The notes under the pieces: generated by a model
The model's database searches: none
The model's input: the letters and a program-made list of their open reading frames with translations, nothing else
What the model was told of the DNA's origin: nothing
Assembly: GCA_964575655.1 (NCBI GenBank)
Contig: CAZNQV010000002.1
Span: forward strand, 1-50,051
DNA: 50,051 bases
Source: an uncultured Muribaculaceae bacterium
GTDB taxonomy: Bacteria > Bacillota_I > Bacilli_A > RF39 > UBA660
Direction of reading: 5' to 3'
Made by a program: the position numbers and the translations under genes
In this document: positions 31,290-32,939 of the stretch, one piece after another
Position numbering within the stretch: the stretch's first letter is position 1
Layout of the letters: each line of letters begins with the position of its first letter

Positions 31290-32939
31290 ATGAATGATTC
31301 TGTAACTGAAAAAAAGGCAAGTATTTTTAAGAAATATGGTAAAGAGACTGTATTAAGCTTTTTATCTATTTTGGCGTTAGTTTCTTTTTTAATATATACT
31401 AGTTACGCTTTGTTTACTGATTTAGAAATTGCTCCTACAGCGAATGTAATTAGTGTTGGTACTTTAGAAATTACATATGATGATACTAGTACTGGATTGG
31501 GACAATATATTGATTTAACAGATGTTCAACCTATGAGTGATGAAAATGGTATTTTATTAACACCATATAAATTTAAAATTACTAACGATGGGGACATACC
31601 AGCCTTGGCAAGTGTATCTATACAGGATGATACTGGTGCAATCACTTCTTGTGGTTGTGGTGAAGATTTATTGTCGCACGATTATATAAAGGTTTATTTA
31701 GTTAGAGAAAGTGATGGTTTTGTAGTAGGACCTAGTGCTTTATCTAGTTTTGAGTACATTGATCGAGTTGAACTAGCTCCACAAGCTAGTGAAACTTTTT
31801 CGATTCGTATATGGATTGATGATAAAATTACTTTAGAAAATTATGCGGATAAGCATTTTCATGGAAGAGTAGTAATTGATGCAACGCAAAAGACAACGGT
31901 TTATGATTATTCTTATATAGGGGAATATCAATTATTTACTGCTCCATATACTGGGTCTTATCAAATAGAGACATGGGGTGCAAGTGGTGGTAAAGGACAC
32001 GCAAATGGAGTTGAAACTACGAGATATGGTAAAGGTGGTTTCTCATCGGGGAAAATAAACTTAACTGCTGGTGATAAACTATATGTTTATGTAGGTGGAC
32101 AAGGTGGAACTGCTACTGATTTAGCGTGTATTGAAGCAGTGTTGGGTGCCAATACCGACACAGGAGGCTTAGCTGGCTGGAATGGTGGTGGCAGAGGTGG
32201 TAATGACGGATGTACACCAACAAATGCGGCCGATGATGCTGGCGGTGGTGGCGGAGGTGCTACGGATATTAGATATTTTGGTGCTACAACACCAACAACC
32301 GCTCAATTAGCGTGGAATAGTTCATTGGGCTTAAATTCAAGAATTATGGTAGCTGGTGGTGGTGGTGGTTCATCATGGGATAGTGCGACATATAATGCTG
32401 GTAGCGGTGGTGGATTAATTGGAGAAAGCGCAGCAATGTATGGTTCAGAAACCGATGCCAATGTTGGTGCTGGAGGAACACAATTGACAGGTCATGCTTT
32501 CGGTCAGGGTGCTAATGGTATATTTACTACATCGAGTAATGTTGGTGACGGCGGAGGCGGAGGCGGATATTATGGTGCCATCGGGCACACTACAACTAGT
32601 GCATATGGAACTGCTGGTGGTGGTGGTTCATCATATGTTAGTGGTCATACCGGTTCGATTGCAATTGATATAACTACAGATGATGATAACGAGCCAAGAA
32701 CTCCTCGCACGGGTACTGGTGGTGCAACTTGTACTAGTGAGACTACTGATAATTTATGTAGTGTACATTATAGTGAAAAAGTCTTTACAGATACACTTAT
32801 GATTGATGGTAATGGATATTTGTGGACAAATACTCGTCAGTCATTAATGATAATGCCTAATCCGGCAGGTGGTTTTTATGCTTCTGGTGCTGGTAGAATT
32901 GGTAATGGATACGCTCGAATAACATATTTAGGATTATAA
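31290..32939 (+). CDS. SipW-class signal peptide, TasA-like module, then ALK/LTK-type glycine-rich domain
   Basis: 549 aa. 'LIYTSYA|LFTDLE', 'NVISVGTLEITY', 'YKFKITN', 'IKVYLV', 'ETFSIRIWIDD', 'GRVVIDATQ'. From about aa 205: 'YQIETWGASGGKG...GDKLYVYVGGQGG', 'AGGGGGGATDIRYFG', 'RIMVAGGGGGSS', 'GDGGGGGGYYG', 'AGGGGSSYVSG'. Confidence 0.8.
   Translation: MNDSVTEKKASIFKKYGKETVLSFLSILALVSFLIYTSYALFTDLEIAPTANVISVGTLEITYDDTSTGLGQYIDLTDVQPMSDENGILLTPYKFKITNDGDIPALASVSIQDDTGAITSCGCGEDLLSHDYIKVYLVRESDGFVVGPSALSSFEYIDRVELAPQASETFSIRIWIDDKITLENYADKHFHGRVVIDATQKTTVYDYSYIGEYQLFTAPYTGSYQIETWGASGGKGHANGVETTRYGKGGFSSGKINLTAGDKLYVYVGGQGGTATDLACIEAVLGANTDTGGLAGWNGGGRGGNDGCTPTNAADDAGGGGGGATDIRYFGATTPTTAQLAWNSSLGLNSRIMVAGGGGGSSWDSATYNAGSGGGLIGESAAMYGSETDANVGAGGTQLTGHAFGQGANGIFTTSSNVGDGGGGGGYYGAIGHTTTSAYGTAGGGGSSYVSGHTGSIAIDITTDDDNEPRTPRTGTGGATCTSETTDNLCSVHYSEKVFTDTLMIDGNGYLWTNTRQSLMIMPNPAGGFYASGAGRIGNGYARITYLGL

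Follow-up and report, generated by a model that had tools for sequence, protein, structure and literature searches.

The gene and its product

The stretch of DNA analyzed here (the window) comprises 50,051 nucleotides (nt) of contig CAZNQV010000002.1 of assembly GCA_964575655.1, from an uncultured Muribaculaceae bacterium (GTDB lineage Bacteria; Bacillota_I; Bacilli_A; RF39; UBA660). It contains, at 31290..32939 on the + strand, an open reading frame (ORF) that starts with ATG, ends with the stop codon at 32937-32939 and encodes a predicted secreted, chimeric protein of 549 amino acids (aa), referred to below as the target. An identical protein is present in a public NCBI record (P0001). The product consists of a predicted signal peptide, a carrier module common to genes of a nearby sipW operon, and a C-terminal glycine-rich domain (GRD) of the ALK/LTK type. 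With a probability of roughly 0.55, the protein is a SipW-processed, fibre-associated binding head, an interpretation that draws on sequence comparison, structure models and analogy.

The predicted signal peptide (aa 1-40, 31290..31409, + strand) has a basic N-region with K8, K9, K14, K15 and K18, followed by a hydrophobic helix and the motif S-Y-A↓L-F-T-D. A helix at positions 5-42 of the predicted models covers this segment, and cleavage would take place after A40. A class III (prepilin) signal was considered and rejected, since the conserved motif follows the hydrophobic helix instead of preceding it; the type IV prepilin motif G↓F-x-x-x-E (PF07963, N_methyl) is absent from the protein. The carrier module (aa 41-203, 31410..31898, + strand) is matched by an independent hidden Markov model (HMM) at an expectation value (E) of 1.4e-37 and is predicted from a structure model to form a beta-sandwich. 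The GRD (aa 204-549, 31899..32936, + strand), recognized with Pfam family PF12810 and with Foldseek, combines in its model a TNF-like sandwich with a glycine lattice; the part matched by Pfam is aa 221-547, corresponding to nt 31950-32930. No Pfam domain beyond PF12810 was found in the target, and the protein ends with the GRD at aa 549. The reading frame and all motifs quoted in a preliminary description of this DNA are present in the translation in the order given there, namely TSYA↓LFTD (aa 37-44), NVISVGTLEITY, YKFKITN, IKVYLV, ETFSIRIWIDD and GRVVIDATQ, followed by YQIETWGASGGKG, GKINLTAGDKLYVYVGGQGG, DDAGGGGGGATDIRYFG, SSLGLNSRIMVAGGGGGSSW, VGDGGGGGGYYGA and GTAGGGGSSYVSG.

Glycine accounts for 23% of the residues in aa 205-549 versus 6% in aa 1-204. 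The window is AT-rich (~25-30% GC; ~27%), and the 3' two-thirds of the target gene have 42-48% GC. The raised GC content is explained by the glycine codons, and horizontal transfer was not accepted on this ground. The six cysteines of the protein (121/123, 280/308 and 481/490) suggest three disulfides.

The ALK/LTK-type glycine-rich domain

PF12810 (ALK_LTK_GRD) matches aa 221-547 with 141.2 bits versus a cut-off of 24.5 bits (E=7.4e-41) over HMM positions 7-243 of 243, a match far beyond chance. A single-sequence phmmer search of the target against the PDB sequences gave no matches. Profile A1, which was built from the target and 33 homologues (34 sequences), matched only chains of ALK (E=1.5e-7), C. 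elegans SCD-2 (2e-5) and LTK (9e-4) among the PDB sequences, and its alignment with ALK pairs non-glycine landmarks in addition to the glycine runs. The AlphaFold2 model computed with A1 has a mean predicted local distance difference test score (pLDDT) of 86.7 and a predicted template modeling score of 0.73. Between the strands in 203-267 and those in 500-548 lies a region that is almost free of helix and strand by DSSP, and the glycine-run region has a pLDDT of ~90 or more in most blocks of 10 residues. In a Foldseek search against the PDB, the top 21 matches were ALK, LTK or SCD-2 throughout (E=1e-9 to 6e-6, probability 1.0), with target-normalized template modeling (TM) scores of 0.26-0.48 and sequence identities of 16-21% in the structural alignments.

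As modeled, the domain is a TNF-like beta-sandwich, and a compact glycine-rich subdomain interrupts it. A disordered linker was ruled out for the glycine-rich part because of the high pLDDT and the fold matches to ALK, LTK and SCD-2. The confidently predicted glycine runs outside helix and strand, together with the ALK fold match, lend indirect support to a polyglycine-II lattice. The preliminary description had assigned the C-terminal 345 aa to the ALK/LTK-type GRD and had named a Pfam search and AlphaFold/Foldseek modeling as checks; both were run, and the assignment is borne out by PF12810, by profile A1, by the top 21 Foldseek matches and by the confident folding of the model.

Strongly conserved glycine cores are located at aa 321-330, 351-360, 421-430 and 441-460, separated by poorly conserved, indel-rich loops. 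Variable loops include aa 281-290, 361-370, 381-390, 411-420, 431-440 and 461-480. Ten polar residues (D326, R328, R351, Q398, S447, S448, S451, H493, Y494 and S495) are invariant in the 34 homologues. In the profile alignment D326 and R328 pair with non-conserved ALK residues, and H493-Y494-S495 lie beyond the ALK-aligned region. The invariant polar set at 326, 328, 351, 398, 447-451 and 493-495 is possibly a functional site.

The GRD has relatives in phages. It matches four PHROG families of unknown function, three of them at E=1e-28 to 1e-30 over ~250 aa, and the target model matches 120 BFVD proteins (E<=1e-3) of phages or giant viruses, including virion structural, tail-collar and tail-fibre proteins. 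Beyond ALK, Foldseek matched the tail tip of Bxb1 (9d93_Qa, E=2.2e-4) and the fibre of cyanophage Pam3 (7ypx_A, E=1.3e-2). [quoted passage not shown] Polyglycine-rich domains are also found in minor tail proteins of mycobacteriophages and are associated with the central fibre in Bxb1 (PMC13252515).

Among the bacterial candidates examined, 1,299 PF12810 matches were scored, and the target gene is one of more than 1,000 homologues. The GRD genes are concentrated in gut metagenome-assembled genomes (MAGs) labelled Bacilli, Tenericutes or Mycoplasmatota and also occur in Muribaculaceae, Prevotellaceae and Clostridia. A locus sample drawn from species-representative genomes and metagenomes comprised 116 GRD ORFs in 83 loci, and only 14 of these ORFs carry the module. 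In the best 120 GRD homologues, a sample biased by the full-length query, 39 proteins have the module, six combine a comparable signal motif with another module, and the N-terminus of 31 is of the prepilin type. Judged by these N-terminal sequences, the GRD head is also pilin-mounted in homologues, unlike in the target. At least eight tandem GRD genes are present in the Prevotellaceae isolate Segatella paludivivens DSM 17968 (loci L032 and L043), and giant GRD-containing ORFs of ~14-21 kb occur in MAGs of gut Bacilli (L014, L011 and L051); the tandem arrays and giant ORFs suggest diversifying families of surface proteins.

The carrier module and the sipW operon

The independent module HMM was built from 16 N-terminal modules, all from other organisms, and was searched on all six-frame ORFs of the window. 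It matched exactly four of them, the target and the ORFs starting at 25281 (E=4.7e-27), 26672 (3.6e-24) and 25963 (5.5e-22). Pairwise BLASTP comparisons of the target N-terminus were weak, with E=6e-5 for the 25281 product and E=6e-7 for the 25963 product. Landmarks of the module in alignment A2 are G-x-S-[YF]-A↓x-F where the hydrophobic helix ends, N52, T-G-T-L, P-M-S-D-x-x-G, F95, Y-I-K-V-Y-L and Y-x-L-R-x-W-x-D. By these sequence criteria the N-terminal module is a real family common to the target and the sipW-locus genes, as had been proposed for the 25281 and 25963 products; the third paralogue at 26672 and a further GRD gene, located at the window's end, had been overlooked.

The family is very large. 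A first profile search with the module returned mostly module-only proteins of 200-240 aa without Pfam annotation; one cluster bears the source name Candidatus Onthousia excrementipullorum, an uncultured member of Bacilli. In a larger search, the module profile matched 11,570 cluster representatives at E<=1e-3, of which 1,437 reached E<=1e-30. In the best 150 matches, proteins of 168-2,133 aa, the module begins no later than residue 38. Among 141 new representatives, 36 were module-only, eight had a GRD and 90 were long proteins without a GRD. Pfam passengers in 89 long module proteins were the Listeria-Bacteroides repeats Flg_new (11), leucine-rich repeats (LRR) of the BspA type (10) and DUF285 (6), along with surface Ig-like, LamG, F5/8 type C and other domains. 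Such passengers are typical of adhesins. The module is thus an N-terminal carrier with adhesin-type passengers, and both halves of the target are used modularly in other proteins, which suggests a carrier plus a binding head.

The relationship of the module to TasA is remote. PF12389 (Peptidase_M73, the TasA/camelysin family) weakly matches 2 of 20 module sequences (best 2.6e-4) and 4 of 89 long module-bearing proteins (best 1.7e-5). The motif S-Y-A↓L-F-T-D of the target resembles T-W-A↓A-F-N-D of TasA by eye only. A B. subtilis TasA sequence, which scores as PF12389 at 129 bits, served as the TasA query. Against it, hhalign gave probabilities of 63% for A2 and 40% for A3, the second module alignment (29 sequences), in both cases over the signal peptide and the first strands only. 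The alignment sets S-Y-A↓L-F-T-D of the target on GGGTWA↓AFND of TasA, and F42, L45 and V53 on F29, I32 and F39. The donor strand of TasA comprises residues 28-38, and F29, I32 and F39 are its hydrophobic residues (PMC9674648). A much closer match was obtained with the N-terminus of P0033, a protein over the PF12389 threshold (26.4 versus 22.5 bits), to which hhalign aligned the module with a probability of 96.5% (E=1e-9) over 173 columns.

Modeled separately, aa 1-205 have a pLDDT of 83.9, which falls to 43 for aa 41-50. Residues 41-52 are the putative donor strand; aa 43-50 are modeled with low confidence, as is expected of a free donor strand. The best Foldseek match of this model is AbpA (7UEG, E=6.2e-4, probability 1.0), followed by the chaperone-usher pilins FimF, FimG, CfaB and Caf1 (E=3e-3 to 2e-2) and by CS20. 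AbpA is an archaeal pilin homologous to TasA that polymerizes by donor-strand exchange (PMC9245690), and the TasA/BsaA superfamily reaches well beyond PF12389 (PMC11580942). From sequence and model, the module is read as belonging distantly to this superfamily, or at least as resembling it, and not as a member of PF12389. Every one of the 29 module sequences has an asparagine at the position of Asn52, in the putative donor strand, which recalls N35 of BsaA, a residue that forms an intermolecular isopeptide bond (PMC11580942). A lysine is usual in the last strand of the module (G-K-x-V) and corresponds to Arg193 in the target; BsaA-like isopeptide locking via N52 is conceivable, but the target has an arginine in place of the common lysine.

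Three module paralogues precede sipW in the window, all on the + strand. Two are module-only proteins and candidate fibre subunits, of 208 aa (25281..25907; HMM and alignment) and 222 aa (25963..26631; HMM and BLASTP). The third (26672..27517, 281 aa) consists of a LysM domain (PF01476, 1.8e-13), a hydrophobic segment and the module, and has weak NCBIfam matches of the SafA and SpoVID type. Its LysM-module layout recurs in P0147 and P0185 and is thus conserved. If the hydrophobic segment were a cleaved type I signal, the LysM domain would, oddly, stay in the cytoplasm and be discarded; the product may be an anchor or a protein of inverted topology. The sipW gene (27531..28223, + strand) encodes a SipW-like signal peptidase I of the archaeal/ER type (S26B), with 103 bits for TIGR02228 versus a cut-off of 51.85 and with the motifs SMxP, THRIV and GDSN; against the Bacillus SipW equivalog model it scores 103 bits, under the cut-off of 190 bits. 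It is followed by genes for two conserved membrane proteins (28186..29372, + strand) of 239 aa (28186-28905) and 155 aa (28905-29372). Neither has a Pfam match, and phmmer finds both at the same operon position in L084, L085, L088, L089 and L090. They are candidate factors of fibre assembly or anchoring.

The module-array/sipW operon is kept in three further locus types (L084/85, L088 and L089/90), in which the conserved order is TatD, 3D-domain protein, two to five module genes, sipW, a short module gene, the 239-aa and 155-aa membrane proteins, ksgA, yabG, veg and spoVG. The short module paralogue (175-196 aa) stands between sipW and the gene for the 239-aa protein in L084, L085, L088, L089 and L090 and is missing from the window. 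The order in the window is TatD, 3D-domain protein, several small ORFs, ksgA, yabG, veg, target, spoVG, yabP, divIC and tilS, and a probable yabQ is also near the target. The best homologue of the full architecture, P0009 (40% identity, 91% coverage), is encoded in the order module-only gene, sipW, small ORF, module+GRD gene, and this is an independent association of the module+GRD fusion with sipW. The link to SipW proposed in the preliminary description is sustained by the conservation of the operon in the three other locus types and by the position of P0009 within a sipW operon. The neighbours of P0049 were considered as module paralogues and rejected; they are unrelated membrane proteins.

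The target gene is flanked by veg (31011-31229, PF06257) and spoVG (32992-33273, PF04026). In the contigs of the relatives (L084/85, L088 and L089/90) veg is followed directly by spoVG, with a gap of ~100 bp. Hence the target gene is an insertion specific to its lineage, placed between veg and the retained spoVG promoter, and the veg/spoVG neighbourhood, correctly located in the preliminary description, thus carries no functional information. The gene is not bracketed by direct or inverted repeats; the repeats found are all inside it and consist of glycine codons. The conserved spoVG promoter, TTGCA...TATACAAT, lies at ~32949-32978, between the target stop codon and spoVG. The listed ORF of spoVG begins with GTG at 32992; the true start is likely ATG 33016, preceded by the Shine-Dalgarno sequence AAAGGAGG.

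A promoter-like site, TTGAAA-18-TGgTATAAT, is found 20 nt upstream of the target ATG (31241..31270, + strand). It agrees with the consensus at 11 of 12 positions and has an extended -10 element, and is a consensus match only. The site itself stands, but the strong promoter claimed for the gene is plausible rather than demonstrated, because such sites are no more frequent in the region than in shuffled sequence. No terminator was found 3' of the target gene. A second GRD gene (48947..50051, + strand; PF12810 1.3e-28), cut by the window end, is located downstream of clpC (46558-48849). It encodes a SipW-like signal, VNFSYA↓IFQ, then a shorter, different N-terminal beta module and the GRD; the organism has therefore at least two GRD paralogues.

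Interpretation and comparison with known systems

In the favored interpretation the target is a two-module surface protein exported by the Sec pathway. Its N-terminal signal, of the SipW-cognate type, would be removed by the archaeal-type signal peptidase, whose gene lies 3 kb upstream, with cleavage after S-Y-A (A40). Together with the beta-sandwich behind it, the mature N-terminus, LFTDLEIAPTANVISVGTL..., would belong to a large unnamed family remotely akin to the donor-strand subunits TasA, BsaA and AbpA. The three module paralogues of the sipW operon may build or anchor a fibre, and the target would join it through the same module by donor-strand complementation, as a minor or tip subunit. 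The C-terminal ALK/LTK-type domain would then be shown as a binding head, with a TNF-like sandwich, a rigid polyglycine lattice, conserved glycine cores and variable loops. By analogy with phage fibre tips, the likeliest class of ligand would be a glycan or surface molecule of the host, of mucus or of other microbes. The displayed binding or tip domain of the preliminary description finds comparative support in the adhesin-type passengers of the module, the prepilin-mounted GRDs and the Pam3 fibre, while its ligand and its incorporation into a fibre are conjectural parts of the proposal.

A number of results weigh against this interpretation. None of the 83 loci, with their 116 GRD ORFs, has sipW within 10 kb of a GRD ORF, and a general linkage of GRD genes to sipW was rejected. 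The same distance is free of sipW for most module+GRD genes, and the target gene itself stands 3 kb downstream of sipW, outside the operon, with ksgA, yabG and veg in between and with its own promoter-like site. Searches with PF12389 gave no match on the target N-terminus even at E<=10. NCBIfam gave none on the target and none at E<=10 on aa 1-50 or on aa 1-205, including the BsaA family and TIGR04088, the model of SipW-cognate signal peptides. The A3 module profile produced only noise (E>1) against the PDB sequences, with TasA not found; TasA is not in the top 50 fold matches of the module model, and the TM score of the module against AbpA is only 0.38-0.42. The term TasA-like thus holds in a remote sense, through P0033 (96.5%) and AbpA as the best fold, and not through PF12389 or the direct TasA alignments at 63% and 40%. 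For the GRD, the match to the ALK sequence in the PDB is compositionally biased (score 32.9, bias 39.3), and it was not relied on alone because of this high bias. The C-terminus of TasA makes inter-subunit contact (PMC9674648), and a bulky C-terminal domain might hinder fibre packing. Full-text literature searches for PF12810 and ALK_LTK_GRD found no studies of bacterial PF12810 proteins and no experiments on any bacterial member.

Some of these points would equally suit a stand-alone, non-polymerizing surface or secreted adhesin with an ordinary Sec signal or an uncleaved anchor, in which the module is a stalk or spacer and the sipW-operon paralogues are functionally unrelated. The position of the gene outside the operon behind its own promoter-like site, the module+GRD genes elsewhere without sipW within 10 kb and the weak fold similarity to fibre subunits (TM ~0.4) all favor such a protein, and an N-terminal carrier of many passengers fits a generic anchor or stalk equally well. 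Conservation of the S-Y-A↓x-F motif and of the next strand with the invariant N52 would be unexpected in a mere anchor, however, and the top fold matches of the module are all donor-strand fibre subunits. Moreover, arrays of two to five module-only paralogues are always encoded with sipW, an arrangement that resembles tapA-sipW-tasA and sipW-bsaABC (PMC9674648, PMC11580942). A stand-alone adhesin is considered rather unlikely on balance. A protein of the spore surface (coat, exosporium or appendage), whose GRD would be a structural or adhesive outer layer like that of glycine-rich or collagen-like spore proteins with TNF-like heads, is suggested by the sporulation-associated neighbours (the yabG protease, spoVG, yabP and the probable yabQ), by the first description of TasA as spore-associated (PMC9674648) and by the LysM-bearing paralogue with its weak SafA/SpoVID-type matches. 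This explanation is improbable: ksgA-yabG-veg-spoVG is a conserved housekeeping order, and the sporulation neighbours reflect insertion and not co-function, because relatives have nothing between veg and spoVG. The promoter-like site is of the sigma-70 type, and homologues stand in unrelated contexts (by ftsZ, the S10 operon or tsaD).

The polar residues invariant in the 34 homologues, with D326 and R328 facing non-conserved ALK residues and H493-Y494-S495 beyond the ALK-aligned region, could instead be the polar cluster of an enzyme or of a module that binds a small molecule or ion. Very little weight is given to this, as searches of Pfam, NCBIfam and the PDB returned no enzyme family, the relatives with solved structures (ALK/LTK, Pam3 gp24) are all binding domains and the invariant residues may merely stabilize the lattice. 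A domesticated or remnant phage receptor-binding protein, derived from a tail fibre, tailocin or prophage, would account for the four PHROG families, for the 120 viral matches in BFVD with their tail-fibre and virion proteins, and for the PDB matches to the Bxb1 tail tip (9d93, E=2e-4) and the Pam3 fibre. Yet no phage genes were found in the surrounding 20 kb, which contain housekeeping and sporulation genes, and flanking repeats or other signs of a mobile element are likewise absent; the protein has a Sec-type signal and the carrier module of chromosomal sipW-operon genes. A phage remnant is accordingly held to be extremely improbable.

The occurrence of PF12810 in bacteria is already recorded in Pfam, and the fold link between phage proteins and ALK as well as TasA-type fibres are published. 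No description was found of the fusion of a GRD to a SipW-operon carrier, of the size and passengers of the carrier family, or of the GRD on both TasA-like and pilin-like N-termini. The fold of the ALK/LTK GRD is among the oddest of human receptors and its origin is unexplained; bacterial PF12810 proteins are numerous. The presence of the domain on a SipW-linked, TasA-like carrier, on pilin N-termini and on phage fibres leads to the concrete hypothesis of a fibre-displayed binding head. The SipW-operon subunits of uncultured gut Bacilli, a large and unnamed family with adhesin-type passengers, bear on how gut bacteria with small genomes attach to the host, to mucus and to other microbes. The target GRD could also serve as a bacterial model for the folding of polyglycine-II lattices.

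A wider proposal is put forward tentatively and is doubtful as a whole. In gut Bacilli and their relatives, the module family would stand for a very large class of donor-strand fibres that depend on SipW, with subunits that carry interchangeable heads (GRD, BspA-type LRR, Flg_new, lectin-like), as a monoderm counterpart of the two-domain tip adhesins of chaperone-usher systems. The same GRD is also mounted on type IV pilin N-termini and phage tail fibres, and the ligand-binding domain of metazoan ALK/LTK would have evolved from this bacterial and phage adhesin head.

Among characterized proteins, the TG domain of ALK/LTK (7LS0, 7NWZ, 7NX1 and 7LIR) is the nearest relative of the GRD, with a Pfam PF12810 score well over the cut-off. 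Motifs common to the target and ALK/LTK are WGAxGG, LYIxVGxxG, GGGGGGAT, AGGGGG, GGGGGYxGG and S[FY]IS. The relationship is at the domain level only, since the receptor hallmarks of ALK/LTK (transmembrane helix, intracellular kinase and EGF-like module) are absent from the target. The target match spans 327 aa versus 237 positions of the Pfam model, ~90 residues more than the model positions that it covers, and a conserved segment with a cysteine pair, CxxxTTDNxC-S-HYS (aa 481-495), lies outside the ALK-aligned part. Unlike ALK/LTK, the target GRD has its own invariant polar residues and a fibre-type bacterial carrier. In the ALK structures of 2021 the ligands reportedly contact mainly the TNF-like part, while the preliminary description had named the polyglycine lattice as the binding surface. 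ALKAL ligands are not known from bacteria.

Phage tips with glycine lattices, namely Pam3 gp24 (7YPX), Salmonella phage S16 gp38 (6F45) and the Bxb1 minor tail proteins (9D93), offer a second comparison. [quoted passage not shown] The phage entries in the PDB match the target much more weakly than does ALK. Unlike phage fibre tips, the target is chromosomal, predicted to be Sec-exported and not located in a phage, and its attachment module appears to be a TasA-like beta-sandwich, whereas the phage tips use a trimeric helical or fibre shaft.

The systems of TasA, BsaA, CalY and AbpA resemble the sipW operon of the window in encoding several small, secreted beta-sandwich paralogues and an archaeal-type signal peptidase in one operon. 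The cleavage motif and first strand of TasA align with those of the target, the PF12389-positive P0033 is a profile-level homologue, and the best fold match of the target module is AbpA, a donor-strand fibre subunit. A precedent for a binding-domain protein encoded beside fibre subunits is the sipW-bsaA-bsaB-bsaC locus with BsaC, which contains a vWA domain (PMC11580942). In contrast to TasA and BsaA, the target and its paralogues fall under the PF12389 cut-off and form a separate, unnamed and very large group; in contrast to the tapA-sipW-tasA and sipW-bsaABC operons, two extra conserved membrane proteins follow sipW, and the binding domain of the target is fused to the subunit itself. Polymerization, a property of TasA-type fibres, is a prediction for the present system.

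Tip adhesins of the FimH type in chaperone-usher systems, which likewise unite incorporation into a fibre and a binding domain in one polypeptide, provide a functional analogy only. The target shows no homology to them, its cell is monoderm, and there is no usher or chaperone. The order of the two parts is reversed relative to FimH, with the carrier at the N-terminus and the head at the C-terminus, and the target has a putative donor strand of its own.

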